Assembly (NCBI GenBank): GCA_946612575.1
Contig: CAMOEU010000001.1
Location: 1-25,922 of the forward strand
From: an uncultured Clostridia bacterium
Lineage (GTDB): Bacteria > Bacillota > Clostridia > Christensenellales > UBA1242
Reading direction: 5' to 3'
DNA length: 25,922 bases
A program made the position numbers and the translations under genes. Each line of letters opens with the position of its first letter. The stretch's first letter is position 1. Of this stretch, positions 2,116 through 22,100 are shown one piece after another. The notes under the pieces are model-generated. The model was not told the DNA's origin, did not search any database, and saw only the letters and a program-made list of their open reading frames with translations.

Positions 2116-2145
2116 TTGACTTTTGAAAAATAATTATGTTAATAT
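2116..2145 (+). promoter_or_regulatory. Putative sigma-A promoter of the ESCRT-like operon
   Basis: TTGACT (2116-2121), 18 bp spacer, TGt-TAATAT (2140-2145); AGGAG RBS at 2154-2158 before GTG 2167. Confidence 0.5.
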
Positions 2146-2166: not shown

Positions 2167-3045
2167 GTGAAGACTAATCAAACAAAAGAACAGAATTTGA
2201 TAACTTTTTCTGGGGACAACAGTCAACTTTTTTGCAGAATAAAAATTGATGACCCTTTTGCAAACAAACTTACCTTGCTTGTTCCAGAAACACATAATGC
2301 AATTTTGATTAAAGATGGTCAAATGCTTCAAACACTCTCTTCTGGGAAATATTTGATTGCAAAGTTTGTGGATGCGAGAGTTGATTTGGATGCGACCTTG
2401 GAAGTTTTGTTTATGTCTAAGACTGCAAAACTCAAACTTCTTTGGGGGACATCTCAAATGTTTCCGCTCAATGATCCATTTTTGGAAGAAAACTACAAAG
2501 TTGGGATGAGTGGCGATTTTGATGTTCAGATTGGTGACCCAAGAAAATGTTATTTATATCTTGTAGGCGCAAACGAAAATCTTACTTCTGACGAACTTCA
2601 AGAAAGGCTTGTTATTACGGTTGTTTCTGTTTTGGAAAATGAAACTGCTGAATATGTGCAAACAAAACAGGTTTCGTTTAACCAACTTACAGTCAAAAAG
2701 AGAGAAATTTCTTCAAAGGTTTTGACAAAGATAAATCAACAACTTATGACAGATTATGGTATTGCAGTGTTTTCGTTTAATATTGCAAACATTGTGATTG
2801 ACCCAGGTGATTATCAAAGAATGATTGCCGCAAAGAAAGGCGAGGCTGTGAAGGTTGAAACAGAACAACCACAAACAAACGAAAAAGGGTTGTTTTGCAG
2901 TGAGTGTGGAAACAAACTCAGCCGTTCGGCAAAATTCTGTGACAATTGTGGTGCAAAAGTTGGAAGTGCAAATGTTTGCAAAAATTGTGGTGTAGAAAAT
3001 TCGGCGACTGCAAAGTTTTGTGAAAATTGCGGAAATAAATTGTAA
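2167..3045 (+). CDS. SPFH/band-7 domain protein (YdjI-like) with C-terminal double zinc ribbon
   Basis: 292 aa; 'LLVPETHNAILIKDGQ', 'LKLLWGT' and 'YGIAVFSFNIANI' fit the YdjI-type SPFH fold; four CxxC motifs (CSEC, CDNC, CKNC, CENC) from nt 2896; no TM segment. Confidence 0.8.
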   Translation: MKTNQTKEQNLITFSGDNSQLFCRIKIDDPFANKLTLLVPETHNAILIKDGQMLQTLSSGKYLIAKFVDARVDLDATLEVLFMSKTAKLKLLWGTSQMFPLNDPFLEENYKVGMSGDFDVQIGDPRKCYLYLVGANENLTSDELQERLVITVVSVLENETAEYVQTKQVSFNQLTVKKREISSKVLTKINQQLMTDYGIAVFSFNIANIVIDPGDYQRMIAAKKGEAVKVETEQPQTNEKGLFCSECGNKLSRSAKFCDNCGAKVGSANVCKNCGVENSATAKFCENCGNKL

Positions 3046-3056
3046 GGAGAAAAATT

Positions 3057-3461
3057 ATGTGGGTTTTTTATGTTTTGGTTTTGCTTGCGATTTTGGGAAC
3101 AGCATTCTTCTTTATCTGGAGAGAATATCATCCAAGAAAGGAAGATGACACAATCGGAAGCAGAGGAGTGCTTAAAAACAAGAAGTCTATTGAAAATATG
3201 GTTGCAAATGTTGAGAGTATAATTGTTTATGCAAATGGAAACGACACACTCTGCAACAGACTTGTTGATGTTAAGGACAATATAAAGTTTTTCAATCCAA
3301 CAACAAATCAAAAAGCAATTGCAGTTGACACAAAACTTGCAGCAAGACTTGATGACTTGAAAATTGCGGTTGCAAAAGACAACACTCAAGAGACTTGCTT
3401 CAGACTTTTGGAAGAGGTCGAGGCATATATTGTTCAAAGAAAAAAGGAAGAACAAAACTAG
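3057..3461 (+). CDS. N-terminally membrane-anchored helical hypothetical protein
   Basis: 134 aa; AAGGAG RBS overlapping the upstream stop; TM helix at residues ~2-21 followed by amphipathic helices. Confidence 0.75.
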   Translation: MWVFYVLVLLAILGTAFFFIWREYHPRKEDDTIGSRGVLKNKKSIENMVANVESIIVYANGNDTLCNRLVDVKDNIKFFNPTTNQKAIAVDTKLAARLDDLKIAVAKDNTQETCFRLLEEVEAYIVQRKKEEQN

Positions 3462-3821
3462 ATGAAAAGAAGATATGAAGCATCTGATTCGTTAAATGAA
3501 GAAGATAAACTCAGGGTGGAAAAGGAACTTAGACTTGGATATCTAAATCTGGGTGAGTTGTTTTTCGAGCAAGCAAGACTAAACTTCACTCTTGCACTTC
3601 AATATGACAGCAAATGTGCTGATGCTTATTGGGGACTTATGCTTTGCAAGTTTCAAGCAAAGTCAGAAGATTTGCTTTTTGAAAATCCTGTGGTGTATAA
3701 AGATGTTGTGTTGTTGCCAGAATATGAAAAGGCAATGACATTTGCAAGTGAAGAAAAGAGAAAAATTTACGAACAAATTCTTGAAAGAATTTATGCAATA
3801 ATTAAAGGCGAGAGTTGTTAA
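3462..3821 (+). CDS. Small stand-alone TPR-like protein
   Basis: 119 aa; starts immediately after the upstream stop; TPR-like 'FFEQARLNFTLALQYDSKCADAYWGLMLC'; similar to modules in the 1277-aa protein. Confidence 0.7.
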   Translation: MKRRYEASDSLNEEDKLRVEKELRLGYLNLGELFFEQARLNFTLALQYDSKCADAYWGLMLCKFQAKSEDLLFENPVVYKDVVLLPEYEKAMTFASEEKRKIYEQILERIYAIIKGESC

Positions 3822-3832
3822 AAGGAGAGCTT

Positions 3833-4447
3833 ATGTGGTGGCCATTTAGAAGAAACAAATTTAAAAAACTCAATCGTGAAGATTTGGTGAACTCAATTTG
3901 CGAACTTGAAAGACAAGAACGAACCGTGGAAGCGGAAGTTTTGCAAAAAATCAAAGAGATTGATGCTTTGATGGAAAAGGGAAAGAAAGAAAAAAGCAAG
4001 GATTTGCAACTTTTCTATGCGAAGAAAATCACAAATCTAAACGAAGAGAAAGAAACAAGTATGCAAAGGGGAATGTATTTGCTCTACAACATTCGCCTTA
4101 TGAACAGGCTTAAGGATGCATATGATAGCAACACATTCTTCAAGACTCAAACAAAAGTGCCATTGTCAGAACTTTTGCAAGATCAAAAAGGACTTGCCAA
4201 GTTTTTGAATAAGGCTCTTGAAACAAGAATTGCAAGTGAAGATGTGCTTACAAATGCAGATGAACTTTTCACAGAAGTTCAGGCAGCTTATGATGTTTCA
4301 CAACCAATTTATGGAGTAGGCAAAACGGAAGAAGATGTGCTTTCAATTTTTGAAAAAGAAGGACAACTTCGTGATGAAGAAGGTTTGGAAGAAGAACAAA
4401 CAAAGGTCGCAACCAAAAAGAAAAAACAAATAATGGAGGAAGAATAA
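3833..4447 (+). CDS. Snf7/ESCRT-III-like coiled-coil protein A (204 aa)
   Basis: Start moved from TTG 3815 to ATG 3833 (AAGGAG RBS). Aromatic/basic N-terminus MWWPFRRNK, long helical hairpin 'ELERQERTVEAEVLQKIKEIDALMEKGKKEKSKDLQLFYAKKITNL', acidic tail; adjacent to a second Snf7-like gene and a MIT-AAA ATPase. Confidence 0.55.
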   Translation: MWWPFRRNKFKKLNREDLVNSICELERQERTVEAEVLQKIKEIDALMEKGKKEKSKDLQLFYAKKITNLNEEKETSMQRGMYLLYNIRLMNRLKDAYDSNTFFKTQTKVPLSELLQDQKGLAKFLNKALETRIASEDVLTNADELFTEVQAAYDVSQPIYGVGKTEEDVLSIFEKEGQLRDEEGLEEEQTKVATKKKKQIMEEE

Positions 4448-4448
4448 A

Positions 4449-5039
4449 ATGGGACTTTTTAAATCAAAACAACAAAAAGAACTTGAAAAGAAAATGCTTA
4501 TCAAAAGGACAATAAACACAATGAACAAGCAAATCAACCGCTTGGAAGATCAAAAACAAGTGTTTATTGAAGCTGCAAAAAAAGCAAAAGAAAAGGATTT
4601 GGAAGCACAATATAACCTTGCACTCAGTGGTTATAAAATGACTGTCCAACAACAAAGAAGAGCACAAGAAATGCTTTTGAATTTTGAAATCACAGCTCAA
4701 ATGAAAGATGTGACAATGATGACATCAGACTTTCTTCGTGGAATGAGCGAAATCAGCAAGGAAATGACAAAACTTGCTGATGCAAAAGAATTTGCAAAAA
4801 TTCAAGCTCAATTCGAACAAGCTATGGTTGCTGTTGAGACTCAAACAGACCAAATGGACAACTTTATGGAAATGAGCCAAGAGACATTCTATAATGCAGG
4901 TCGTGACAAGTCAGGAAAAATGACTGATGCAGAATTTGAGAAGTTTATTGAAGAGCAGGCTGGACTTGACACTCTTTCTGATGACAAAATCAATAGCGAA
5001 ATTGAAGAACTTAAAAAGAAGATAGAATCTGAAAACTAA
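4449..5039 (+). CDS. Snf7/ESCRT-III-like protein B (Vps2/Vps24/Did2-like, 196 aa)
   Basis: GGAGG RBS. N-terminus MGLFKSKQQK; basic N-half and acidic C-half; Met-rich segment 'FLRGMSEISKEMTKLADAKEFAKIQAQFEQAMVAVETQTDQMDNFME'; C-terminal MIM1-like helix 'DDKINSEIEELKK'. Confidence 0.7.
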   Translation: MGLFKSKQQKELEKKMLIKRTINTMNKQINRLEDQKQVFIEAAKKAKEKDLEAQYNLALSGYKMTVQQQRRAQEMLLNFEITAQMKDVTMMTSDFLRGMSEISKEMTKLADAKEFAKIQAQFEQAMVAVETQTDQMDNFMEMSQETFYNAGRDKSGKMTDAEFEKFIEEQAGLDTLSDDKINSEIEELKKKIESEN

Positions 5040-5053
5040 CAAAAGGGAAGTTT

Positions 5054-6199
5054 ATGGCAGAAAAACCAAGTATTACTGTTTTGTCTGACACATATGACCT
5101 TTATATGAAAAAGGCAAAACAAGCGAAAGAAAATGGAAATCTCTCAATTGCAAAGAGAAATTTTCTTCTTGCCAGCCAAACAATGATGGAAATGGCAAAG
5201 CAAAGTGAAGGCAAGCTTAAAGAAATCAGAATGGACAGGGCAAGAAGGCTTGTCAAACTTACTGAAAACATTGACAAAAAGCCAGAGAAAATTGAAAAGA
5301 AATCTTCTGGAGAGTCAAACGAAGAAGATGATGAAGTAAAAAAATGGCAAACAGCACAAATTCCAAACATAACATTTGCTGATGTTGCTGGGCTTGATGA
5401 TGTCAAAAAATCTATCACAATCAGAATGATAAATCCTGTGAAATATCCAGAAAAATATAAGATGTATGGTAAGAAATCTGGTGGTGGTGTGCTTTTGTAT
5501 GGACCTCCAGGAACAGGAAAAACAATGATTGCAAAAGCTATTGCAAACGAAGTTGGTGCAAAGTTTTATGCTGTCAAGGGCTCAGATATTGTGAGTAAGT
5601 GGGTTGGCGAAAGTGAGAAAAACATAAACTCTTTGTTTGAAGAAGCAAACAAGCAAGATAGAGCCATCATCTTTATTGATGAAATGGACAATTTGCTCGG
5701 GACAAGAGGTGTTGACACTCACAACGACAAAAGAGTAAACGAATTTTTGCAGCAGATTGATGGTTTTGCTGGCAGAAATCAAAACTTGCTTTTGCTTGGA
5801 GCAACAAACAGGCCTTGGGATATTGACAGTGCAGCAACAAGATCTGGAAGATTTTCCGAGAAAATTTATTTGCCACTTCCTGATGCGGCTGCAAGAAAGT
5901 TTATGATAGAAAAAAATATGAAAAATGTGCCTGTCTCAAAAGATTTTGATATTGACAAAATTGTGGAACAGACAGAAGATTATAGCGGAGCTGATATTGA
6001 AGAACTTTGCGATAGAGCAAAGGATGAACCTCTTCTTAAGGCAATCGCGACAGACAGTGTTGTTGATGTGACAAACGAAGATTTTGATAGAGTTTTGGAG
6101 AAAATGCCTCCTTCTGTCACACCAAAAGAAATCGAAAGATTTGAAAAATACAACGAAGAAGTAAACGGACTTATAAAGAAAAACAAAAAACAAGGATAA
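5054..6199 (+). CDS. MIT-domain AAA+ ATPase, Vps4/CdvC-like
   Basis: 381 aa; three-helix MIT-like N-terminus, charged linker, single AAA module with Walker A GPPGTGKT (5501-5524), pore loop SKWVGESEK, Walker B IIFIDE (5666-5683), ATNRPW, Arg-finger RSGRF and C-terminal helix PSVTPKEIERFEKY. No TM or protease domain. Confidence 0.8.
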   Translation: MAEKPSITVLSDTYDLYMKKAKQAKENGNLSIAKRNFLLASQTMMEMAKQSEGKLKEIRMDRARRLVKLTENIDKKPEKIEKKSSGESNEEDDEVKKWQTAQIPNITFADVAGLDDVKKSITIRMINPVKYPEKYKMYGKKSGGGVLLYGPPGTGKTMIAKAIANEVGAKFYAVKGSDIVSKWVGESEKNINSLFEEANKQDRAIIFIDEMDNLLGTRGVDTHNDKRVNEFLQQIDGFAGRNQNLLLLGATNRPWDIDSAATRSGRFSEKIYLPLPDAAARKFMIEKNMKNVPVSKDFDIDKIVEQTEDYSGADIEELCDRAKDEPLLKAIATDSVVDVTNEDFDRVLEKMPPSVTPKEIERFEKYNEEVNGLIKKNKKQG

Positions 6200-6201
6200 A
6201 A

Positions 6202-9200
6202 ATGAGAGAAAGGGTTTGTAAAAATTGTGGAGGAAGACAATATAAAGTTGTTGGGCAGAATATGGTCAAATGCCAGTTCTGTGGGACTCTCTATGTGGAT
6301 GAACAAGCCTCAAAAGAAGAAGAAATTTTGCTTGTTTCTGCAAACGAAAAACTTAGAGATGCAAAGTTTGCGGATGCAATTGTAGAGTTTGACAAGATTC
6401 TTTCCATATACCCAAACTCGTTTGAAGCTTTTTTTGGAAAATCTCTCGCCAAGAATAAAATTGTGTTTTACACAAACAAAAAAGGCTCGGGGAAAAGACC
6501 AAGATATTTTGGAGACAAAATCCCACAACTTTCAAATGATGATGATTTTCAATCTGCAATAAACAGTGCTCCTGAAGAAATTGAAAAGGAGTATGGTGAT
6601 ATTGCAAAGAGAGTTGAAAGAGACATAAAAAAATATTGTGAAATTGACAAGTCAAAAGGCTGTGATGTTGTCATTTTCCAAATGAGTGAAGATGGTATTG
6701 ACAAAACAGAAAAACTTGTCAAAAAACTTAATTCAAAAAAAATAGAAACATACTTTTTGCAAGAACTTGAGACAAAAGAAAATGAAGCAGAGACCTTCTA
6801 TGCTCTTTCTTGTGCAAAAGTTTTGCTTGTTGTTGCAAACAAGAAAAATGGATATAACGATAGTGATGTAAAAAATCTTATTGATAGATTCAGATATTTT
6901 ATTTCTCAAAGACAGAAATATTCTATGGGATTTGTTATTGCATATGACAACAATGTCATTGAGAAAGAAAATTTGCCACAAGAACTTGGTTTTTGCAAAA
7001 ATTATGTTGATTTCAATTCCAAAAATTTTGTGGATTATATGACTGCAAACATTGAGACTGTGATTGAAAAAACACCACAGGAAGTTGCAAAAATTGAAAC
7101 AAGAAAAGTTGAAAAAGTTGAACCTATAAAGAAAGAATATGTTGATGTTGAAAACATTACACCAGCCGAACTTGGGCATTATAAAGTTCAAAATGTTGAA
7201 GCGAAAGATGCAATAAAGACAAAGTGGATTTTCCTTAGTTTGAAAAATGCCGATTTTGAAGCGACAGAAAAACTCATTGAAGCCGAACTTGAGAAAGATC
7301 CAAACAATGCCGAAATGCTTTTTGCACAAATGCTTTGTGAAAAAAGATTAAGGACAGCAGGCGAATTTTTTGAAAGCATATCAAATTTTGATAACAAAGA
7401 GAAAATAGACAATATTCTTGCTTACTCTTCAAAAGAGTTTGCTGAGATGTTTGTTGACAACTGGGAAAGACTTATTGAGAGTATTGACAGCGATGATTGC
7501 TACAACACATATCTTCTTTATCTTGCAAAATTTGACACTCCAAACAGAGAACATTTTGTGGAGTGTGCACAAGAAGTTGCTGTTGAGACAATGAATGAAG
7601 AGCTTATTGACAATGTTTTGAAATGCTTCAAAAAAGATGAAGTTGATAAGTATGTTAAGTTTTATTTCGAACTTGCTCAAAAGAGCGACAATCAAAAATA
7701 TTATGACAAAATTCTTGAGATTGACCAAGGTCATAAGCAAAGCAATATGTCGCTGCTACTTAGAAACTTTAAGACAAATCAAGACAAACTTGAATTTAGA
7801 GACAGAGAAAAAATTGAAGATAGCCTAAAATTTTTGGATGATGATGCAAGAAGTCAGTTTGCTTTTGCTGTGATAAATCTTGTTATTCCTGTTGCATTTT
7901 TGGATTTGAAAAAGGCTGAAGAGCAGATTGATTTTTATCTTTCTTATGTTGATCCAAAAAATTATGAAATCCCATACAATATTGCAAAGAAGTTGCTTGA
8001 TGTAAATTCTTTCAGATTGGCTGAAAAATATATCGCTATTGCAATTTCAAGAAATAAAAAAGATGCGACACTTTATTGGGAGCTTTTAAAGATAAAAGCT
8101 CATTGCAAGACTGATGCTGAAGTTGTGACATCTCCAGTTGACTTGACACAATTCCCTGAATGGCAAACTTTGCTGAATTATGCAAACGATGAACAGACAG
8201 AGCAATATGCAGAAATTGTCAGCAAATCACACCTTTATAAAGGCAAAAAGAAGCAGATTGCTGAAGAACTTATTGACAAACAATCAATGATTGAGAAATT
8301 GACTGATTTCTTAAACAGAAACAACAAAATTTTGCTTGAAAATGAAGAAGAAAACGGAATTGTTTCTGTCAAAGGTTGTGAATATTTCAAGATTCAACTT
8401 TCACCATTTGAAGATTATTTAAACATTGTCAAAGATGTTGAAACTTTTGATGATTATGTTGCAATTGCATCACATATTTATCAAAGACTGTTTTTCCTTG
8501 GATTGACACTTGAAAGTTCGGTAAGTTCGATTCAGATAAATGAAAAAGGTGAAGGTCTTAAAAATGTCGAAATTGGAAGAAGTCTTTCTTTAGGTCACAA
8601 AAAACAAAAGAAAATAAAAACAAACAAAACAAAAGAAGAAAGACTTGTTGATCCGGAACTTATTGAAAGAAGAAAGAAATTTTGGAAACTTTTCTTTTTT
8701 GGATTTTTTGAGATTTTCCCTGTTTTGTTTTTGACGATTTTGTTGACAATTAACATAGGTAATTCAAAACTTGTTTATGCTTATTTTTCACAAAAAGCAA
8801 TTCTAATTATGATGCTTTATTCTGTGGTTGTAGGCTTTGGAAATCTGATTTATTATATGCTAAGAAAGAAAAAATTTGCGATAAAGAAAAAGCTTTCATT
8901 GATTTTTCTTATGATATTTGCTTTTTTGAATGTTATTCTTCTTGTAATTGGATTTTATTTGACTGATAATACAATCAGAATTTACAACGGAAATGAATTT
9001 GAAACTTTTGTAAATAATGCAACTTATTCAAATATTGAGATTGAAAATGATATTAATTTCAAAGGAAAGGAAATTTCGGTTGGAGATTTCTATGGAAAAA
9101 TTGATGGAAAAGGTTTTTCGTTAAATAATGTTGCATTGAAACAAACAGAAAACACGGCGATGATCCGTAGCAATTTTGGGACAATCAAAAATCTGAAAAT

Positions 9201-10035
9201 CAATCTTGAAACAAAAACATACAGAAATATTTCAAACTTTGCAGTGATTGCGATAAACAATTATGGAGAGATTATTGGTTGTGAAATTTCTGGAAATGTA
9301 AAAATCTATGCAAAAGATTCATTAAATTGTGGTGGATTCACAACATATCAATGTGCAGGAGAAATAACAGAATGCACTGATAATACAAATATTGAAATTG
9401 CAAACCTGAAAAAAACTGGAAAGCTTGGAAAACTTGCTGCAGTGGTGAGTGGAAAAACAAGTTTTGTAAAAAATGAAACTTATGGAAGTTTCAAAATTTC
9501 TGAAAATGAATGCGAAATGGTGTATTTTGGTGGACTTGCTGGTTATGTTGATGGAGATTTTGAATGCAAATTTGAACAAAATGCCGCAAAAACTGATATA
9601 AATGTAAATGTTTTTTCAAAAAGTTTAACGATTGGTGGGCTTTTTGGTTATTCAACAAAATCAAGCAAAAACAACTATGCCGATTTTAACATTAGTAATG
9701 TAAACACCAACAACGGAAATGTTGGCGGACTTTATGGCGAGTTTGTTTGCTACAATCCGGCTGATGCAATAGCTTTTAGTTATGCGAAGATGAATTTAAG
9801 TATCTCAATGACTGGTCATGTGGGTGGAATTGTCGGTGGAACACACGGAAGCATCAAAAATTGTTTCTTTAAGGCTAATGAGTTATTAAATATTGCTTCA
9901 GGGCAACAAATTGATATGACGACAATTTCAAATTGTATGAGCAATTTGGAAGGATATAAAAAAGCTCTTGGCTTCAGCTCAGAATATTGGAATGGTGTGA
10001 ATGAAGATTCTTCTAATTATCCAACTTTAAAATAA
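6202..10035 (+). CDS. Large membrane receptor-like protein: Zn ribbon - TPR - TIR-like - TPR region - 3 TM - extracellular GLUG-type repeat domain
   Basis: 1277 aa; CKNC...CQFC at the N-terminus; TIR-like segment at ~153-290 ('ALSCAKVLLVV...DVKNLIDRF...LPQEL'); TM helices at ~827-853, 866-887 and 898-920; C-terminal GGLAGY/GGLFGY/GGLYGE/GGIVGG repeats. Confidence 0.7.
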   Translation: MRERVCKNCGGRQYKVVGQNMVKCQFCGTLYVDEQASKEEEILLVSANEKLRDAKFADAIVEFDKILSIYPNSFEAFFGKSLAKNKIVFYTNKKGSGKRPRYFGDKIPQLSNDDDFQSAINSAPEEIEKEYGDIAKRVERDIKKYCEIDKSKGCDVVIFQMSEDGIDKTEKLVKKLNSKKIETYFLQELETKENEAETFYALSCAKVLLVVANKKNGYNDSDVKNLIDRFRYFISQRQKYSMGFVIAYDNNVIEKENLPQELGFCKNYVDFNSKNFVDYMTANIETVIEKTPQEVAKIETRKVEKVEPIKKEYVDVENITPAELGHYKVQNVEAKDAIKTKWIFLSLKNADFEATEKLIEAELEKDPNNAEMLFAQMLCEKRLRTAGEFFESISNFDNKEKIDNILAYSSKEFAEMFVDNWERLIESIDSDDCYNTYLLYLAKFDTPNREHFVECAQEVAVETMNEELIDNVLKCFKKDEVDKYVKFYFELAQKSDNQKYYDKILEIDQGHKQSNMSLLLRNFKTNQDKLEFRDREKIEDSLKFLDDDARSQFAFAVINLVIPVAFLDLKKAEEQIDFYLSYVDPKNYEIPYNIAKKLLDVNSFRLAEKYIAIAISRNKKDATLYWELLKIKAHCKTDAEVVTSPVDLTQFPEWQTLLNYANDEQTEQYAEIVSKSHLYKGKKKQIAEELIDKQSMIEKLTDFLNRNNKILLENEEENGIVSVKGCEYFKIQLSPFEDYLNIVKDVETFDDYVAIASHIYQRLFFLGLTLESSVSSIQINEKGEGLKNVEIGRSLSLGHKKQKKIKTNKTKEERLVDPELIERRKKFWKLFFFGFFEIFPVLFLTILLTINIGNSKLVYAYFSQKAILIMMLYSVVVGFGNLIYYMLRKKKFAIKKKLSLIFLMIFAFLNVILLVIGFYLTDNTIRIYNGNEFETFVNNATYSNIEIENDINFKGKEISVGDFYGKIDGKGFSLNNVALKQTENTAMIRSNFGTIKNLKINLETKTYRNISNFAVIAINNYGEIIGCEISGNVKIYAKDSLNCGGFTTYQCAGEITECTDNTNIEIANLKKTGKLGKLAAVVSGKTSFVKNETYGSFKISENECEMVYFGGLAGYVDGDFECKFEQNAAKTDINVNVFSKSLTIGGLFGYSTKSSKNNYADFNISNVNTNNGNVGGLYGEFVCYNPADAIAFSYAKMNLSISMTGHVGGIVGGTHGSIKNCFFKANELLNIASGQQIDMTTISNCMSNLEGYKKALGFSSEYWNGVNEDSSNYPTLK

Positions 10036-10057
10036 AAACCTTAAATATAAGGTTTTT
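10034..10057 (+). terminator. Intrinsic terminator closing the 7-gene operon
   Basis: AAAAACCTTA-aata-TAAGGTTTTT perfect stem plus T-run, directly at the stop codon. Confidence 0.75.
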
Positions 10058-10067
10058 TATTTTTTAT

Positions 10068-13132: not shown

Positions 13133-16100
13133 ATGAAAAAATTTAGGATAGCATTGATGTCGATTTTTACATTGCTTCTTGGCAGTGTGCTTGTTGGATG
13201 TAATTTCAAAAAACCTGAAATTGATTTCTCAAAAGAGCAGGTTTATATTTCTGCGGGAGAAGAAGTTGATCTTAGAGGTCTTTTGAATGTGAAAGAGGTC
13301 GATGCAAAAGATGTTAGGTTTAGATTTGAAGATTCTTCACTCTTTCAAGTTTCTGAAGGAAAGATAAAAGCAAAGAGTAGAAGTGGTGAGTCTTATGTTT
13401 ATGCCACATACAACAATGATGTTTTTGCCTCAATTAAAGTTTTTGTTAAACAAAAATTCTCAACACCTAAAAACTTTTCAATGAATGAAAATGGACTTAT
13501 CTCTTGGGACAAGTCACTTGCGATTTACAGCAGTGAAACAACACCTACATTTGCAAGCTCTTATAGAGTTTATGGAACATACACTTCATACACTGGCGGG
13601 CAAGAAAACGAACCTGAAACATTTGAAGTTTTCTCAAACACAAATTCATATCAACTTGAAAACGAAGGTGTTTACAATATCAAAATTGTTGCACAAGGCA
13701 CGGACAGATTTGATGCTAGTGCAGAATATGCCGTTCAGTCATTTGGCTTTGGATATATGCCAAAAATTGCAACAGCAGATTTGATTTGGTCAAATGATGG
13801 TGTTCTTTCTTGGGAAACAACTGAGATTGAAAATGCGGAATACGAAGTTTATGTTGACGGCATTAAGGTTGTTGACAAACAATCACAAAAGAGTGCAGAC
13901 CTTTCAGAGTTGTTTGACGAGCTTCAAGCAAAAAATCATACAATCAAAGTTGTTGTTTATGATGCTGTTGGCGACAAAATGCCTACAGAAAGCGATGCAA
14001 TTTCTGTTTTGAAGTTGGCAAGTCCTGTTGCTACATATGCTTTTTCAGCAGAAAATGGTGGGCTTATTTCCTTGGGAGCAAATCCACTTATTGATCACTA
14101 TAAATTCACACTTGTTGGTGATGATGAAGAAGTTGTCACAATCGACAATGAAGAAGATGGAGTTTTGACTTCACTTGATATGATTGATGCTGGTGTTTAT
14201 TCACTTTCTATCCAAGCAATTGCCGTTGAAGGAAATTATTATCAAAGTGACAAAGTTTCTTTTGGGAAAATCTACAAACTTGAAACATTGACTATTTCAG
14301 GAACAGACAAGAATGTTGAGAATTCAAACACATTCAATCTTCTTGCAAGTGCAAATGCAAGTGTTGACACAATTCTTTCAGTTAATGTTGGGGAAACAAA
14401 AACAACTTCAATCGGGATTGAAGCTGGGGAAACAAGTGCCGAATTTGAAGTGGAAGTTCCTTCAAATGGTATTTACTCTGTTTCTGCAAAGCAATTTGCA
14501 AAGGAAGAGCAAAACACAATCTTTGGAGAAAGAGTTTATGTTTTGAATTCAAACTTGAGTGAAGCAGTTGTTGTTGAAAAACTTGAAGCAATTTCAAACA
14601 TCACTCACGAAATTGAAAGTGAAAAATCTGTTTTTGTTTTCGATGAAGTTGAAAATGCTGACAAATATGAAGTGTTTGCACTTGATGGAGAAGAGTTTGC
14701 TCTAGTTGACAGCAGTTTGTATTCTTGCGAGATTTCTCAAGGCAAGGTTAGATTTGTTTTTGATGACAAAATTGAAAACTTGAATGTTGCACAAAATGAA
14801 AAAGTGTTTACGATTAAGTTTGTTGCAAAGAAAAATGATGAAACCCTTACAATAAACTCTGCAAAACAAAAAGTTTTGACCGAACTTGATATAGCAGGAA
14901 ATGTGGAAAAAGAAAACTTAAACAAAGTTTATTCTTGGACTGCAGTGGAAAATGCAGATGCCTACAGGGTGGGAATTTACAACATTGACAAAGCTACATT
15001 TATAGCAGGACAAACAGACATTGACACGACTACACTTGACAAAAATGAAGAAGTTGTCGATACAAATTCTTATACATTTGCAAACGAAGGATATTATCTT
15101 GTCAAAGTTTTCTCACTTACTGAAAATGCAAATGAGTTTATAAACTCAACAGAGTCTTTTGACAGACTTGTTTGTGTTTCTGAAAAACTTGTTGTTGAAG
15201 ATTTTGATGTAAGTTTTGTTGGTGGAAAATATAATGTTGTGATTGAAAATAAAGACCATTTTGATAAATATGAGGTTTATCTTGATGATGTGAAGATTCT
15301 TGACACAACAGCAAGCAGTGAAGAAAACTCAACATATATTCTTGAAACAGATTTTGCTGATGAAACAAAAACTTACAAGATTGAAGTTGTTGCAAAAGCA
15401 AATGATAATGTGCTTTATGAAAATTCAGAGAAAAAGGCAGTGAGAGTTGTCAAACTTCCACAAATTGTTGGGGAAGATATTGAAATTGCAAAACAAAGCA
15501 TTGCCGTGGGCTCAGATATGAAAACAGCAACACAATCACAAGAAATGAAAGTGAGTGCTGTTGAAGGTGCAAGAGGAGTGCTTCTCTATCAAGAAACAAA
15601 CCCAGCAGAAAGAGCTGGCGGAGAGGATGCAACAACCGCAACATATGACCTTGGCACAATTGCAAACACAAACTTTGTGTTTAAGTATTTTGGTTCTGCA
15701 AAACAAGGGAATGTTTTTGTAAAGACAAATGGATATATTTATCTTGACAGTGAAGAGTCAACAATAAACATTTCTAGACTTGAAACTCCAACAAATTGTG
15801 AATATGTAAACGGAGTCTTGAAGTTTAATAATACAAACACAGCAATCACAGAATATTATGTTGTGACAATTGTGTGCAAAGGACAAGATGGAGAAAGAAG
15901 AAACATTGTTGTCGAACTTTCAACAGAAGCAAAAGCAACTTATGGAGAAAATTCTGAAGTTATTGGAAATGGCGGCGACTTTGTTTCAAATAATGTAAAT
16001 GAAGTTTCAATTTCCATTGAAGATCTCATTGAAGCTGTTTCAAATGTTTCTGATGTTGAAATCAGACAAGTTTACTCTCAAGCAGCAAGCTTTGGATTTG

Positions 16101-19100
16101 CTGTTTACAGTTATGCAAATATAGTTAACGATGATGCTGTGGTTTCGTCTTCAAACTATGCCGGCACAGCTTTGGATGCAAACACAAAAGTTGTTGTTGT
16201 GGAAAAGATGACTGCTCCAGAAATTTCTTACCAAATAATTGGAGAAAACATTGTCTTCAATTGGGATGCGGTTTCAACTGATGCTGCAGTTTCTGCACAA
16301 ACAACATATCAAATGTTTGTAAATGGAAACGAATATGGACAAGTTATTTCTGGCACTCAAACAGCAAGTTATGCTTTGAGCGAATTTGCCCTTGGAACAT
16401 ATTATACATTTGCACTCACTGCACCAAATCCAAATTATATAGAATCGAGTCTTTCAAACAAAGTTAGAATTTTTAGACTCAACAAAATTACTTCACTCAA
16501 ACTTCTTACTGGTGGGGACTATGATGGACAATTGCAATATGAATTGTCTTCACAAGAACAAGAATTTGTAGATTATGTTTTGGTTGGTGAAGAACATAAT
16601 CAAACAGGAAAAATTGAAATTTCTGCTCCAGGTGCAATTACACTTAAAGTTGTTGGAAAGAAAAATGTCGAAAGTCAAGATATGACAACAACATACATTG
16701 ACAGTGAAACAACAACTTGGACTCTCAGTCAAATGCAAACACTTAAACCAGCATTGGAAAACTTTGAATATAACAATGGTGTTTTGAGCTGGGATGAATT
16801 TGCTGAAGGAAATAATTTTGAAAACCTTAAATATGTCTTGATTTTCACTGATTCTCAAGATAATATCGTTTCTTACACAACAAATCAAAACGAAGTTTCG
16901 ATAAGTGAAACAACATTGGATGAGACATTGCAAAGACTTGTTGAAGGAAACATTGACATCTCACTTTATGCAAAACTTGAAACTTATGATGTTGTCGCTG
17001 GCGGAACAATTTATTACAGCAACAAGATAACACTTGAAAATGATTTTGAAGTTGCAAACTATCATAAATATGCAAACACACTTTCAATTTCAAAACTTCC
17101 TACTCCAGTTGTTTCGAATGTGGAATTTGTTGAAGATAGCACAAATGGAATTTACAACACTCCAAATATTGAAATAACATTTACAGGCGACTATGGAAAC
17201 GAAGCAGACTTTGTTGTTTCTTCAAACATTGATGGACAAGAAATCACAACAGAAACTGTTAAGCTTACAAAGAATGCTGATTCATATAAATATGTAATGC
17301 AAGCAGAAAAGTATAAAAACAAGTTTGCAAGCGGCAAAACGATTGTATTCAAAATTGCTGCAATCAGTGAAGAAAACATTCCTTCATCTGTGGGAAGTGT
17401 GAATGTCCTTTGTGCAAACACAATATCTGGATTTGAAATCAAAGAAGATAAAAACGGAGAAGGTCTTTCTCACTTGCTTCAAATAAATGTTGCACAAGCT
17501 GATGTTCAAAAAACTGCTGGCGGATTTGATTTGGCATTTGGGATTATTGAAAATGGCGGCTCTGAAAAATATATTCATATTCAAAAGAGTGTGTCAACAG
17601 TTTCTACAACACAAACTTTTGACATTACAGATGTGATTGAAACACATTTGGCAAATGGCGGATTCTTGACAATTTCAATTACGACCCGCTCTTATTCAAA
17701 TGCGGAAAGTGGTGTATATATTCTTGCATGTCCTACATATTACATTCTACCTAAGTATGATGTTTTGTCAGGAGTGACTCAGGCAAACATAACAAAAACT
17801 GCTGGTGGATTTGAAATTGATAAAACAGTAAATAATGAAACAACAAAATATAAAGTTGTTTATGGTGCAAATGTTTATGATGTTATTTATAAGGATGACA
17901 AATTCTATTTTGAAGTTCCAACAACTTGGGTAAATGGAAATTATGAACTTAAAATCTATGCCGTTGAAAGTGATTATATTTATTCAAAACAACTCAACTA
18001 TACATTTGTGTTAAACAGAATTGATAATGTGACAAATGTGTCAATCACAAGAGACAGCGAAGATCTTTCTGATGGAAAAATTGAATGGACAAATGTTTCT
18101 GGTGCAGCTGGATATATGCTTAGAATTTATAGTGACAACACAAGAAGCAAAGAAATAACAAGGGTTTCATCTTCTACAAATTCTTTGAAATTCAGCGAAA
18201 TCTTCACAGAAGAATTTTATGACGAACTTAGAATAAACGAAGAAGATAAAGATATTTTTGTTGGAATTGCTGCACTTGGACAAAATGAAACCGCAAACGA
18301 TTCTCAAGAATACACATTCAATGCAAAAGTTTGTGGAAATTACTTTGATGTTGAAGAAGAAATTAAACTCAACGAATATGGTTTGGTGACATTCAAAGCA
18401 ACTGCTGGAAAAACATATATCTATAGATTTGTTGACACGGCTGGACAAGTGCTTTCTGATTGGGTTGAGGTGACAGCGGAAGATGATATTGTCACAATTG
18501 ATGCAAGTGTTTTAAATAGAGATTCTTCAAACAATGTTAGACCTGCCGGAACAGTTTTTGACATTCAAATTATTGTTGTGGGAAGTTATGATGGTGACAC
18601 AATTTCATTTAACTCAAAACCAGTTTCGACAGAAGACTCTGATGTGAAATTCTTGATTAATGCTGAAATAAGTAAAATAGAATACAATTCAAGTTATGCA
18701 GAATATATCACATTTGAAATGCAAACATTTGAAGCTGCATCACAAGGTGAAGAAGACGAAGAGTCTGAAGAAGAAAGCAGTGCTATTGACATTTTGTATT
18801 ATGGTGTCGAAGCAGATGCAATCAAGACAGGAAAAGTTTCATATATAACTCCAAAGGTTTTGAAGAACAATGATGATGGAACAAGCATTTATGGATGCAA
18901 ACTTATCGATTTGATTCTTGATATGACAAGTGAAGAAAATGTTGAGAAATTTGGAGAACTTCCTTCAGGAGATACAACAATTTATTTCTGGTCATACAGA
19001 AAAGACGACGGTGAGATTTTGAATGACTACATAAATTCTCCAGCAAAAGGATATGTGATAAATCACACCGCTGATGCAAACTTTGTTGGAATAGAAAAAT

Positions 19101-22100
19101 ATGGACTTCCAGAAGATGCTCAATTCCAAGAAGATTATGCAAACACATTTGCACTCTTTGAAACAAATGAAACATTATTAAATATGAATGTTGGTGTTGT
19201 TGTGAGAGTGACTGATGGAAATGAGACAATCACTAAGTTTATCAGTCGAGCAGAAATGGTTGGCAACGAATATTTTGAAGGTAGAGATGTGATTGTTGCA
19301 AACCTTACAAACCTTTTTGAAACAACAAACGGTTTGAAAGATATGTATGGTGATTTGACAATTGATATTCTTAGAGTGAAAATACAAACATTGACTCAAA
19401 GATTTGTGATTTCAGATTGGACAGAAGCAATTGAGTTTAAGAGAATTCAAGGTGTTGACAAAATCACACTTTCAGCAGGAGCAGTTTCTTGGAAACCAAA
19501 AGACACATACAATGGAAGTTTCTATGTTTATTTGATAAGTAAAGATGCTTATGATGAAGAGACTGGCATAATTGATGGAAACTATTCAGTGTTTAGAACA
19601 ACAAACACATACTTCTCAATTATGGATAAAATCACTGAAGACGATGAATTCTATATTGCAATTCAAGCAATTGGACTTCCAGACAACATTTTGCCATCAG
19701 CTAAATTGTTTGTCATGGAAAACGGCAAAGCAAAGCTTATCAGAAAAAACAAAATAACAAACAAACTCAATCTTGAAAACGGAAACTTGTCATTTGATTG
19801 GACAGGTTCTGATTTGATTGAATTCTTGAATGGTGTAGATGAAGTGTCTGTGACTAAAGTAGATGAATTATACAAGAGCACTTTCAATATTCCATTCACA
19901 TTCAACATTACTGATTTTGTAAAAGAACAATATGTTGTTAGATTTAGATTTACAAATAAAGAAACAAACAAAGTTCAAACATTTGATGTTGATGCACAAG
20001 AATTTGTGACAAATGAATTTTTGACGGAAACAGTACCTGGAAAAGATTATACTTACGAGCAACTTCTTACAAATCTTGCAACAATTGCAGGCTCAACAGT
20101 TCAAAAGAATGAAATAAACACTTTTGTAAGCATGCTTAAAAAATCAAGACTTGGAGTGGGAAATTCTAAAAACTTGTTTGATGATTATTTTGAAACTCTT
20201 CAAGCAGGCAATTATAGTCTTGAATACAGCCTTGTTGGAAGAAACTATTCAATAAGCTCAAATTGGGTTTCTTTTGAAAATGCTCAAGGAGAAAATAGTG
20301 TTTATGTTTTGAGACAACCAAACATTAAAGTTCTCAGAACTCCAAGCAATACTGATTCAAGCAAAAACTATTATAAAGTGTTTATCAAAATGGTAAGTTT
20401 ACACTATTTTGAAAACGGTGTTGACACAGAGAAACTTGCCGAACACTATGTTTGGAAAGTTTATAAGAAAACGGAAGAGGGTGAAAATGCATTTGTGTTT
20501 GACATCCAAAAGTCAGGAGATGACTATGCTGTTTCACTTCTTGGTGTTGATGGTTATAATGCAAAAGCAATTAGATGCGATGAAAACGGAAATGCAGATG
20601 CAGATGGAATGTATATAATGTTCTATCTCAACTTGGAAGAAGATTCAATTCTTGGCAGATTTGGAAACGAATTTGATAAGACAAACTACAAATTCCAAAT
20701 TTATGCAGTTGGAAATGATCTTTGCATTTCAAGTAAAACAGAGATGTTTGAAATCGTATTCCTTGGTTTTGATACAGGACTTAGTGTTATTGATGGTGTG
20801 TTTAATTGGACAACACAGATGAATAGAAACACAACAGTTATCTATAAGAAAGATTCATCTATAGAAGAAAAGAAAGTTGTTTTGAATGGAAGTGGAAGTT
20901 CGATAACATACAGCCTTGAAGGTGCTGGACTTTACAATTACATTAAGTTTATATCATTTGGTGAAGTTGCAGGAAACAAAGTTTATGTTGACAGCGAAAT
21001 TTACACATTCAAAAATGTTTATAAACTTGAAAAACCTGTTTTGCAAAACTTAAATGGAAATATTGCAATCAATGACAGTGGAAACAAAACATGGATAGAA
21101 AAATGTTATTCAACAACAAGCCTTTACAATTATAGGATATACAACAATGTTTCTACAGAAACTTCATATATAACATTTGTGGATGGTAATGAAGCAAAAG
21201 ACTTGTATATGTATGAGCCTGGCACAACAAACATAGAAAGTTCAGATCCAAATTTTGAATACAAAAAGACAGAATTTGACCCTGCAATTCAAACATTCTA
21301 TGTTTCAAGCATAGGTTCGACATCTAGATTTGTGTTTGAAAAAGATCCTGAACAAAACGGTGTTATAAATGCTTATTGCAAAGAAGAAAAGGATGGAGAA
21401 GAAGGTAAAAACAACCTTAGTATTGCAATTTCAAGTGATATTGCTGATTTCAATGCAAAAATGATGAATACAGTTTCAAAAGTTGAAATTAAGGATGGTA
21501 TTATAACTTGGAATAAAGTTGAGAAGAGTGTTTTGAACTATGGTGATGATGAAACTATGGACTTGACCTTGCCAAACAAGACATACACAGTTTATAAAGT
21601 CACAATCGAACAATACAACGAAAAAGGTGGTGTTCCAGAAAATAGCGAAGCGGTTGACCCAATTTTGATTACAAAATATACAACAAAAGAACAATTTGAC
21701 TTTGCATATCTCTCAGAGAGTGAATTCAGTGAAGATGCAGAATATATCAAAGTGACAGTTCAAGCACTTGCATTGTCTGTTTCACAAACAGTTCCTGAAG
21801 GAATTGCTGACAATATGTGGGTAAGACTTGTTGACGGCAGAATTGGTTATGGCCTTACACAATATCAAGAGAGATATAAAGAAAATGAAGATGATATTGG
21901 AACAAAATTCTATGTGTTGCTTGGACAAGGTGCATCTATCGATCAAATAACACACACAGCACATGTTGATGACAATTCTCTTAAAGTTGAAAATGGAAAA
22001 GTTTATTGGACATACACTCTTGATGGTGCAATTGCAAATTATGGCGAAGATTATGATTTGTTTAAAAATTATCAATTTACTATATTTGACAAAGATTCAA

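Follow-up and report, generated by a model that had tools for sequence, protein, structure and literature searches.

Recent reviews describe the pairing of ESCRT-III with a Vps4-type ATPase as absent from bacteria (PMC7619361, PMC10936438), and the first-pass annotation of the locus reported here started from the same premise, namely that bacteria have no dedicated Vps4. The premise holds only in part, as Ravi et al. (2024) reported both bacterial Vps4-like ATPases and Snf7-branch proteins (PMC11237479). In Text S2.2 of that study, Vps4-like AAA+ proteins of Planctomycetes, Verrucomicrobia and other groups are found beside a large multi-transmembrane (TM) TPR protein, and some bacterial Snf7/PspA proteins accompany AAA+ ATPases; snf7 is displaced in the Vps4-like operons, and Firmicutes are not listed (PMC11237479). 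In archaea, the partners of ESCRT include serine/threonine kinases, GOLD-domain proteins and SPFH proteins with zinc ribbons (Makarova et al. 2024; PMC10936438). In Bacillus subtilis, the SPFH protein YdjI connects PspA to the membrane (cited in PMC10936438).

The operon described here lies in a window of 25,922 nucleotides (the whole stretch of DNA that was analyzed) from a ruminant-gut bacterium with a genome of 0.69 Mb at 86% completeness. Its seven co-directional genes, at 2167-10035 on the forward strand, are separated by gaps of 11, 0, 11, 1, 14 and 2 nt, and the list of open reading frames matches the initial description exactly. The genes below are taken from that list.

2116-2145, forward strand: promoter-like site, TTGACT-18 nt-TAATAT with extended TG (consensus scan)
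2167-3045, forward strand: g1, cytosolic SPFH protein; GTG start
3057-3461, forward strand: g2, small membrane anchor
3462-3821, forward strand: g3, free TPR-like module
3833-4447, forward strand: protein A, probable ESCRT-III paralogue of B; ATG start, full coverage by homologues of 200-207 aa
4449-5039, forward strand: protein B, Snf7/CHMP-type ESCRT-III at the family level
5054-6199, forward strand: Vps4-like AAA+ ATPase
6202-10035, forward strand: g7, receptor-like protein
10036-10066, forward strand: weak terminator-like hairpin at 10036-10055 with an 8-bp stem (2 GC pairs) and a 4-nt loop, followed by a T-run (found by eye)

Compared to the operons of Ravi et al. (2024), this locus likewise combines a Vps4-like ATPase with a large TPR/TM protein as its neighbor, but here the Snf7-type genes stand beside the ATPase, in Bacillota and in ten loci of other phyla, and are accompanied by an SPFH scaffold. 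That study anticipated the operon in part, though not the SPFH-A-B-ATPase operon itself.

Compared to the archaeal non-Asgard ESCRT loci of the "Meth_adaptin" type (PMC10936438), the operon has three features in common. First, one or more Snf7-type genes lie immediately upstream of a single-cassette AAA ATPase with a MIT or, here, MIT-like N-domain. Second, the locus encodes an SPFH protein that combines coiled-coil and zinc-ribbon parts. Third, GOLD-domain proteins and serine/threonine kinases are encoded in loci related to it; in raw counts, the neighbors comprise serine/threonine kinases (9 of 102), GOLD proteins (2) and also SPFH proteins with zinc ribbons. The operon differs from archaeal ESCRT in its bacterial host; in that winged-helix (ESCRT-II-like), CdvA and adaptin-appendage proteins were not detected; in an ATPase that scores 212 bits on the NCBIfam CdvC model against a cut-off of 650; and in its partners, which are a TM receptor with a TIR relic here and TIR, trypsin and BrxL-like proteins in relatives.

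The pspA-ydjGHI (samGHI) operon of B. subtilis resembles the locus in co-encoding an ESCRT-III-superfamily protein with a cytosolic Band_7_1 SPFH protein, zinc ribbons and small membrane proteins, and in what may be a shared envelope-stress logic. Compared to PspA and Vipp1, however, A and B are assigned to the Snf7 branch, and the pair is encoded with a classic AAA ATPase of its own. We know of no PspA system with such an ATPase; PspF is a different AAA+ protein of the bEBP type.

Occurrence and genomic setting

Related loci were collected through alignment of the ATPase. The order SPFH-g2-A-B-ATPase recurs in nine loci of Bacillota metagenome-assembled genomes (MAGs), and in ten loci of Planctomycetota, Chloroflexota and Verrucomicrobia gene B is found beside the ATPase gene or within about 4 kb upstream of it; this co-occurrence bears out the proposal that the genes belong together. 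In 14 further MIT-AAA loci no B was detectable nearby. Within the genus, the core is present in 9 of 25 genomes (the window's own counted) and was not found in 16 of 24 sister species; among 18 sister species, the 6 with A were also the 6 with the ATPase. A sample of 400 other genomes from the rest of the phylum yielded no instance of the core.

A chimeric contig, considered in the first-pass annotation, is ruled out by the identical gene order in independent MAGs and by contigs from two independent ruminant-gut DNA studies, which span the whole operon, the longer ones crossing most of the gene junctions. Both YabP and tRNA-Ala are encoded in the flanks, as annotated. Two related MAGs retain the upstream flank (a bPH gene and a small open reading frame) but have a different downstream flank; the downstream CvpA-like gene is strongly divergent within the genus. 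Loss of FtsH from the host genome was considered and rejected, because FtsH is present in all relatives and is thus merely unassembled here.

The expression signals were recovered to different degrees. A ribosome-binding site, AGGAG, lies 9 nt upstream of the GTG of g1 at 2167. A promoter candidate is present at 2116-2145, but promoter-like sites are unspecific in this AT-rich DNA (39 found versus 28 expected), and a single promoter therefore cannot be established. The terminator 3' of g7 is plausible but weak: the hairpin and T-run exist, but the stem has only two GC pairs and a terminator scan after 10035 gave no site above threshold. In RNA reads from two metatranscriptomes, the only matches were poly-A artefacts at about 8600.

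The helical proteins and their ATPase

Protein B begins with MGLFKSK and is composed of an alpha1-alpha2 hairpin (residues 7-48 and 52-109) followed by helices at 113-152, 160-173 and 178-195; its AF2 model is all-helical (pLDDT 81.5). Searches of Pfam and the PDB with the single A and B sequences of the window gave no match. With a family profile of 89 relatives of B, CHMP2A ranked first among 177,635 PDB sequences (E 9.2e-6, colinear over 141 residues), with CHMP1B, CHMP3 and Vps24 lower. The Pfam Snf7 model (PF03357) matched 15 of these relatives (best E 9.6e-7), and membership of B in the PspA family was rejected since none of the 89 matched PspA_IM30 (PF04012) at E <= 0.01. In a fold search against Swiss-Prot, the top 22 matches were all ESCRT-III (Foldseek probability 0.89-1.00) and PspA first appeared at rank 23, although the Foldseek E-values for A and B are weak (0.01-0.4). 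The TM score against Did4/Vps2 was 0.65. By profile and fold, B is nearest to CHMP2A and Did4/Vps2. These comparisons, which settle the choice between Snf7 and PspA in favor of the former, place B at the family level in the Snf7/CHMP branch of ESCRT-III.

B also shares with CHMP2A and CHMP3 (Vps2/Vps24) the basic N-half, the acidic C-half and a helix of the D/ExxLxxxLxxL(K/R) kind at the C-terminus. The tail, DxxIxxxLxELKKK, is conserved and predicted to form a MIM1-like C-terminal helix; in 45 of the 89 relatives the final 30 residues contain the pattern [DE]xx-h-xxx-h-xx-h, whereas 200 shuffles gave 5.4 on average and 13 at most. The charge asymmetry had been noted at the outset for both helical proteins of about 200 aa, and the net charges agree with it (+7 and -12 for the halves of B, +5 and -9 for those of A).

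Protein A has the same helix order as B in an all-helical AF2 model (pLDDT 70), with a hairpin at 15-52 and 56-106, then shorter helices and an acidic tail that ends in KKKKxxMEEE and carries no MIM1-like motif. Alignment of the A family with the B family by hhalign gave E 3.5e-5, colinear over 163 columns; the single A sequence against the B profile was not significant. ESCRT-III proteins account for 21 of the 30 best Swiss-Prot fold matches of the A model, at weak E-values as expected of coiled coils, and the PDB fold matches are mixed, including BAR, SNARE and designed bundles. Taken together, A is probably a divergent ESCRT-III paralogue of B. The annotation of two Snf7-like proteins thus holds clearly for B and, through the family alignment, probably for A.

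The ATPase has a MIT-like three-helix N-domain (about residues 10-75), an acidic linker, a single classic AAA cassette, a lid and a C-terminal helix, and its motifs are GPPGTGKT (Walker A), IFIDEMD (Walker B), SKWVGESE (pore loop), ATNRPW and RSGRF. Pfam assigned AAA (4.9e-42), AAA_lid_3 and Vps4_C (24.7 bits, cut-off 21.3). Vps4_C matched 21 of 36 ATPase relatives; for 33 control AAA proteins it did not figure in the list of the 25 commonest families, each of which has at least 11 members. The match is confined to positions 28-59 of 61, and the lid runs straight into the terminal helix with no beta-domain. We take the beta-domain inserted in the lid to be a feature of eukaryotic Vps4 that binds Vta1. 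Compared to VPS4, the SKW-GESE pore loop, ATNRPW and the C-terminal helix are shared, while the arginine-finger region reads R(P/S)GRF, which the first-pass annotation had noted for Cdc48-type ATPases. The differences from CHMP2A and VPS4 further include an identity of about 17% and the absence of a Vta1 site and of ESCRT-0/I/II.

The affiliation of the AAA core is less distinct. The CdvC model aligned along residues 10-369 (model positions 7-367 of 370), and archaeal Cdc48 D2 domains scored 204-225 bits on the same model, on par with the bacterial ATPase. The core is about equidistant from the Cdc48, PAN, FtsH and CdvC models. In a maximum-likelihood tree that contained no verified Vps4 reference, the bacterial family was not set apart from Cdc48, PAN and TPR-AAA proteins, and rooting on FtsH placed the bacterial MIT-AAA proteins in a grade rather than a clade. 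A search of two archaeal MAGs and their phylum with the CdvC model returned mostly Cdc48-type proteins and no verified Vps4. The closest other AAA relatives are TPR-AAA proteins, and the protein-language-model neighbors include archaeal Vps4-type clusters.

Family profiles of the N-domain recovered MIT domains, namely that of chitin synthase 1 (2mpk; E 3.8e-4 and 3.4e-6) and, with the 36-sequence profile, also those of calpain-7 (5e-3), CdvC (2w2u; 0.054) and VPS4B (0.56-3.6). The matches that span all three helices are MIT domains; TPR designs match helices 1-2. Pfam's own MIT model did not match the window's ATPase, and matched the N-domains of 5 of the 36 relatives at E <= 0.1, so that the N-domain is termed MIT-like on the strength of the family profiles. 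Of the annotated MIT-bearing Vps4-type ATPase, the layout, Vps4_C and the family-profile MIT likeness stand, but the Pfam MIT model, the CdvC score and the tree do not support it. By its layout, the ATPase next to A and B is Vps4-like.

The scaffold genes and the receptor

The annotated SPFH gene, g1, which opens the conserved core in the nine Bacillota loci, was confirmed. It encodes a cytosolic protein of the Band_7_1 type with two C-terminal zinc ribbons (Band_7_1 5.5e-14, Zn_Ribbon_1 8e-15, DZR 1.4e-9), belongs to SPFH/Band 7 by PF13421 (52.7 bits, cut-off 24) and PF01145 (30.5 bits, cut-off 23.6), and shows no hydrophobic or TM segment by hydropathy. The g2 protein matches no Pfam family; hydropathy predicts a single N-terminal TM segment (residues 2-20) before a conserved cytosolic helical domain, and a homologue separates the SPFH gene from A in eight of the nine Bacillota loci. 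The g3 module, akin to the internal repeats of g7 (phmmer of g3 against g7, E 4e-6), is lineage-specific, being found in L026-L028 and missing from G013, G021 and more distant loci.

The g7 protein of 1277 aa is receptor-like, with three predicted TM helices (830-916). From its N-terminus it comprises a zinc ribbon, TPR-like repeats, a degenerate TIR-like domain (about 150-290), further TPR-like repeats and the TM helices, beyond which lies an extracellular domain of GLUG/beta-helix-like type. It aligned to a TPR-TIR_2 homologue in locus L002 by BLASTP (E 2e-12 over about 750 residues). That protein's TIR_2 domain (35.8 bits) is the homologue of the TIR-like region, with WVRNEW of L002 aligned to DVKNLI of g7, and the catalytic Glu is replaced by Leu; g7 itself gave no Pfam match to TIR or TIR_2. 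The domain is a degenerate, probably non-catalytic relic. Accordingly, the membrane-spanning and TPR-like parts of the annotated TIR/TPR receptor are retained, and its TIR part only as such a relic. The identity of g7 is 40-44% between species whose ATPases share 77-82%, and another strain has different sequence in place of segments 8796-8998 and 9612-9907. The receptor is fast-evolving, with an outer domain that varies between strains.

Possible functions of the operon

We give roughly even chances to the reading that the operon encodes an ATP-recycled ESCRT-III module which remodels membranes and is linked to a receptor in the envelope. With the fold and family of B, the gene order, the co-occurrence and the domain layouts of the ATPase and g7 in hand, we infer polymerization, MIT-MIM docking, ATP-driven disassembly, a trigger and a physiological role, along the chain of sensor, scaffold, polymer and recycler first proposed for the locus. 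Recruitment of A and B to the membrane would fall to g1, the SPFH/zinc-ribbon scaffold, and g2, the anchor with one TM segment, much as YdjI with YdjG/H recruits PspA in B. subtilis; A and B would co-polymerize on the cytoplasmic face of the membrane. The AAA+ hexamer would dock through its MIT-like N-domain onto the MIM1-like C-terminal helix of B and thread subunits through the Trp pore loop, resulting in turnover or constriction of the polymer. The receptor g7, with its fast-evolving domain outside and its zinc ribbon, TPR repeats and dead TIR scaffold inside, may set the place and time. The most likely use would be the sealing or shedding of a damaged or attacked envelope.

A somewhat unlikely alternative is that the operon is mainly an anti-phage or conflict system. 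Attack would then be sensed by the receptor together with a TIR-type partner, and the ESCRT-III/ATPase core would be either the effector, remodelling membranes or arresting growth, or a brake that mends membrane damage caused by the system itself, as ESCRT-III does against gasdermin and MLKL pores in animals; in this locus the TIR, having lost catalysis, would be no more than a scaffold. The partners do vary among loci: TIR_2 is above the Pfam cut-off in L002, L030 and L095, and related operons encode trypsin-like proteases, a BrxL-like Lon ATPase, a RuvB-NERD fusion and a SNF2 helicase. Together with the patchy core, these partners make an immune system fit as well as a repair system, and the rapid change of g7 and its outer domain among strains is in keeping with it. 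However, other variants lack an immune-type partner, such as L033, with surface repeats alone, and the Planctomycetota loci, with kinases and GOLD proteins. The catalytic Glu is replaced in g7, and the window carries no neighboring defense genes, integrase or mobile-element marks. When eight proteins were scanned against PADLOC-DB 2.0, the ATPase alone matched (IetA and TRIP13, both as generic AAA models); a catalogued anti-phage system was rejected, as the other seven had no match.

It is quite unlikely that A, B and the SPFH protein form a PspA-like envelope-stress carpet that stabilizes the membrane without scission, next to a classic AAA unfoldase of the ordinary kind (acting, for instance, in membrane-protein extraction or giant surface-protein assembly) that makes no MIT-MIM contact with A or B. 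The Band_7_1 SPFH protein, zinc ribbon and small TM protein do recall pspA-ydjGHI (PMC10936438, PMC13713150), the Pfam MIT signal is weak, the AAA core is equidistant from several models, and large surface proteins are encoded 3' of the ATPase in many loci. Yet B stays near the ATPase in four phyla while other partners change, B lies on the Snf7 rather than the PspA branch, its MIM1-like terminal helix is conserved, and the N-domain matches covering all three helices are MIT.

That the operon is a housekeeping device by which a reduced-genome bacterium carries out membrane fission, in division, sporulation or the release of vesicles or nanotubes, is very unlikely. The sporulation gene yabP nearby, B relatives that exist as fusions with FtsK/SpoIIIE translocases, the very small genome and the division of some archaea by ESCRT-III/Vps4 (PMC7615534) would suit it, but a system not found in 16 of 24 sister species or in the 400 phylum genomes cannot be essential, and it is present in non-sporulating lineages (Planctomycetota and Anaeroplasmataceae). 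That A and B are generic coiled coils with a compositional likeness to ESCRT-III, as the missing Pfam matches of the window's own proteins, the weak Foldseek E-values and the mixed PDB fold matches of A might suggest, is hardly credible given the first rank and colinearity of CHMP2A, the 15 relatives reaching Snf7, the 22 leading ESCRT-III folds and a helix order, charge asymmetry and terminal helix consistent with ESCRT-III.

If the operon is an ATP-recycled ESCRT-III module, the conservation of both parts in one operon of bacteria would alter the evolutionary picture, be it through ancient inheritance or through transfer from archaea to bacteria. It would also tie SPFH scaffolds and TIR-type receptors to the ESCRT-III machinery, and would offer a minimal soluble set for studying how ATP-driven turnover lets ESCRT-III cut or mend membranes. 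More tentatively, and as a possibility rather than an expectation, several phyla (Bacillota, Planctomycetota, Chloroflexota and Verrucomicrobiota) may own a true Snf7-type ESCRT-III/Vps4 machine, shared or exchanged with archaeal ESCRT including its SPFH, zinc-ribbon, kinase and GOLD partners, which in gut Clostridia would serve as the repair or shedding arm of a TIR-linked surface-receptor immunity. If so, the gut-Clostridia version would be a bacterial counterpart of ESCRT-III repair in animal pyroptosis and necroptosis.

Operon layout, assembly and host

The seven genes are tightly packed on the forward strand with intergenic gaps of 11, 0, 11, 1, 14 and 2 nt, in agreement with the first-pass annotation. 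Its claim of a single terminator stands in part: a weak hairpin with a T-run follows g7, but a terminator scan gave no call there.

Features of the operon (gene coordinates from the ORF list)
2116-2145, promoter-like site upstream of g1
AGGAG site 5′ of the GTG start of g1
2167-3045, +, g1 (SPFH, zinc ribbons)
3057-3461, +, g2 (one-TM protein)
3462-3821, +, g3 (TPR-like)
3833-4447, +, A (204 aa, ESCRT-III-like; ATG at 3833 backed by homologues)
4449-5039, +, B (196 aa, Snf7-type)
5054-6199, +, AAA ATPase
6202-10035, +, g7 (receptor-like)
Weak hairpin with T-run, 3′ of the last stop codon of the operon

The flanking genes are ordinary and encode a lysyl-PG-synthase-like membrane protein, tRNA-Ala, a bPH protein, a CvpA-like protein, YabP and a pseudouridine synthase. 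A very large ORF (13133-24238) lies 3 kb downstream of the operon; it was first read as a 3701-aa lipoprotein with a GLUG-type tip, and shares the GLUG theme with the outer domain of g7.

A chimeric contig can be excluded, because contigs of two independent studies take in the entire operon, with longer pieces spanning most gene junctions, and the identical gene order recurs in other MAGs. Many studies have near-identical DNA in their metagenomes of bovine, sheep and goat guts, and close homologues are labelled as Candidatus Caccovivens or Clostridia MAGs. The source genome measures 0.69 Mb at 86% completeness, and its relatives 0.8-1.3 Mb. Such a size is unusual for Clostridia in being so small, and suggests that the bacterium depends on a host or partner. 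FtsH is absent from the assembly and was probably just unassembled, since all relatives have it.

ESCRT-III-type proteins and the adjoining ATPase

In single-sequence searches, B alone matched nothing in Pfam or the PDB. An exhaustive search with B yielded 314 cluster representatives, and a profile was built from 89 of these. First, of all PDB sequences CHMP2A scored best against this profile (141 colinear residues, E 9.2e-6); CHMP1B, CHMP3 and Vps24 ranked lower. Second, Pfam Snf7 matched 15 of the 89 relatives and PspA_IM30 none. Third, modelled with AF2 (pLDDT 81.5), B shows the helix order of ESCRT-III, and in a Swiss-Prot fold search its first 22 ranks were all ESCRT-III proteins (Did4/Vps2 at TM 0.65, CHMP2A, Vps20, Snf7), with PspA first appearing at rank 23; protein-language-model neighbours agreed. 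The family conserves an MGLFKSK-like N-terminus, a basic N-half, an acidic C-half and a C-terminal helix, DxxIxxxLxELKKK, and a MIM1-like pattern was found in 45 of the 89 tails compared to 5.4 in shuffles. On these profiles and the modelled fold, B can be securely assigned to the Snf7 branch of ESCRT-III, as had been proposed.

The B-type domain also forms the N-terminal part of fusions with FtsK/SpoIIIE-type translocases, with a RuvB-like AAA+ plus NERD nuclease, or with other long C-terminal regions. Examples are loci L021:6093-7886 and L006:8001-10403 (P0177), as well as P0178, P0184 and other representatives of 430-840 aa from the exhaustive B search. Also present in the fusion loci are genes for the SPFH protein, for a protein of ~343 aa and for the MIT-type ATPase, together with a second B-type gene.

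A and B are separate families at the sequence level, yet their profiles align colinearly (hhalign E 3.5e-5, probability 72%). The A model reaches a pLDDT of 70, and its Swiss-Prot fold matches are mostly ESCRT-III, but its PDB fold matches are mixed helical proteins. A is probably a divergent paralogue of B.

The ATPase consists of one classic AAA cassette, AAA_lid_3 and a C-terminal helix above the Pfam Vps4_C cut-off; 21 of 36 relatives have a Vps4_C match as well, and the beta-domain is absent. The NCBIfam CdvC model spans the protein end to end (10-369 on 7-367) at 212 bits, far under its cut-off, a score that archaeal Cdc48 D2 domains equal. A tree built without verified Vps4 references was uninformative on clade membership.

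The MIT-like N-terminus of the earlier description fared better with family profiles than with Pfam, whose MIT model had no match in the N-terminal 100 residues and matched only 5 of 36 N-domains (E <= 0.1). Profiles of 10 and then 36 N-domain sequences matched true MIT domains across all three helices, with chitin synthase 1 at E 3.8e-4 and then 3.4e-6, calpain-7 at 5e-3, CdvC at 0.054 and VPS4B at 0.56-3.6, whereas designed TPR proteins matched at helices 1-2 only. By these comparisons the N-domain is likely, but not securely, a MIT domain. The next-nearest AAA relatives after the MIT-type family are widespread ~440-aa TPR-AAA proteins of Bacteroidota, Pseudomonadota and Verrucomicrobiota (L058-L105, e.g. 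L058:7734-9047), which bear on the question of whether the N-domain is MIT or TPR-derived.

In Christensenellaceae-type loci (L029:4395-5936, L030:7983-9581, L095:8001-9464) the ATPase has 487-535 aa, carrying 100-150 additional residues at its C-terminus. An archaeal MAG (L072:3532-5053) encodes a 364-aa AAA ATPase with a MIT-like N-terminus, 3′ of a free 112-aa MIT-like protein and two coiled-coil proteins, and in L118 the gene of a 197-aa helical protein (MGLPNIFKRF...) precedes that of an AAA ATPase of 487 aa. Both appear to be uncharacterised archaeal ESCRT-type loci.

Conserved core and variable partners

Conservation was surveyed with an ATPase alignment against 185,579 species genomes, and the neighbourhoods were then searched with HMMs. 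Nine MAG loci of Bacillota share the order SPFH-g2-A-B-ATPase (Clostridia, Christensenellaceae, Christensenella, Haloplasmataceae, Anaeroplasmataceae). Ten others, from Planctomycetota, Chloroflexota and Verrucomicrobia, have B next to a MIT-type ATPase or within about 4 kb upstream of it. These results bear out the association of B with the ATPase; the HMM search did not detect B in the neighbourhoods of 14 further ATPase loci. Metagenomic relatives (28-36% identity) have the same gene set in different orders. A is present in 9 of 25 genomes of the genus, the window's own counted, and among 18 sister species checked for both, A and the ATPase turn up in one and the same set of genomes. A phylum-wide sample of 400 other genomes gave no match to the B family.

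Ravi et al. 2024 (PMC11237479) described bacterial operons with Vps4-like ATPases in which a TPR-6TM protein takes the place of snf7, and also, as a further case, occasional Snf7/PspA proteins that adjoin a two-domain AAA+ ATPase. Neither the SPFH-Snf7-Snf7-MIT-AAA operon nor its occurrence in Firmicutes is described there. A full-text literature search found no paper with the phrase 'bacterial Vps4' or 'bacterial Snf7'. With their kinase, GOLD, SPFH and zinc-ribbon partners, the present loci recall archaeal ESCRT loci, for which Makarova et al. 2024 (PMC10936438) highlighted S/T kinase and GOLD-domain partners. Beside the bacterial B plus MIT-AAA loci (L043-L057, alignment A6), 9 of 102 ORFs encode S/T protein kinases and two encode EMP24/GOLD-domain proteins.

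Among the other operon genes, g1 encodes an SPFH protein of the Band_7_1 type, cytosolic and with two zinc ribbons, g2 a single TM helix plus a conserved domain in the cytosol, and g3 a free copy of a TPR-like module that g7 also has. In the g7 protein, a zinc ribbon at the N-terminus and TPR-like repeats are combined with three TM helices (830-916) and, C-terminally, a GLUG-type domain that should face outward. The proposed transmembrane TIR/TPR receptor keeps its TM helices and TPR-like repeats. Its TIR-like region has no Pfam match; the homologous region in a distant relative is a true TIR_2 domain, and in g7 Leu takes the place of the catalytic Glu.

Identity between species is 40-44% for g7 as against 77-82% for the ATPase, and parts of the outer domain are replaced in another strain: in one bovine-gut run, an operon contig has 8796-8998 and 9612-9907 (TM-proximal and GLUG parts of g7) swapped for diverged sequence of similar length, which suggests strain-level diversification of the outward-facing part.

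Other partners vary across loci and include TPR-TIR_2 proteins, trypsin-like proteases, a BrxL-like Lon ATPase, an S/T kinase and LRR_5 or Flg_new surface proteins; family counts among 102 neighbours were Pkinase 9, double zinc ribbons 5, TIR_2 3, GOLD 2, trypsin 2 and HEPN 2. One relative with a TIR_2 domain is the Christensenella-type locus L095. The outer partners, which change from locus to locus, have the look of sensors or effectors.

Possible function

The conserved operon is a real feature; its mechanism we infer. A scaffold, an anchor, two subunits of ESCRT-III type and an ATPase whose docking layout matches make up the constant core. The best explanation for it is a polymer of ESCRT-III subunits recycled by ATP. 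Such a polymer would act on the inner membrane face, with polymerisation, MIT-MIM binding and disassembly as its proposed steps. The operon could be a repair device for a damaged envelope. It could also be an arm of an immune system, as the TIR, trypsin, BrxL and NERD partners and the patchy distribution echo such systems. Envelope repair and immunity may here be one and the same.
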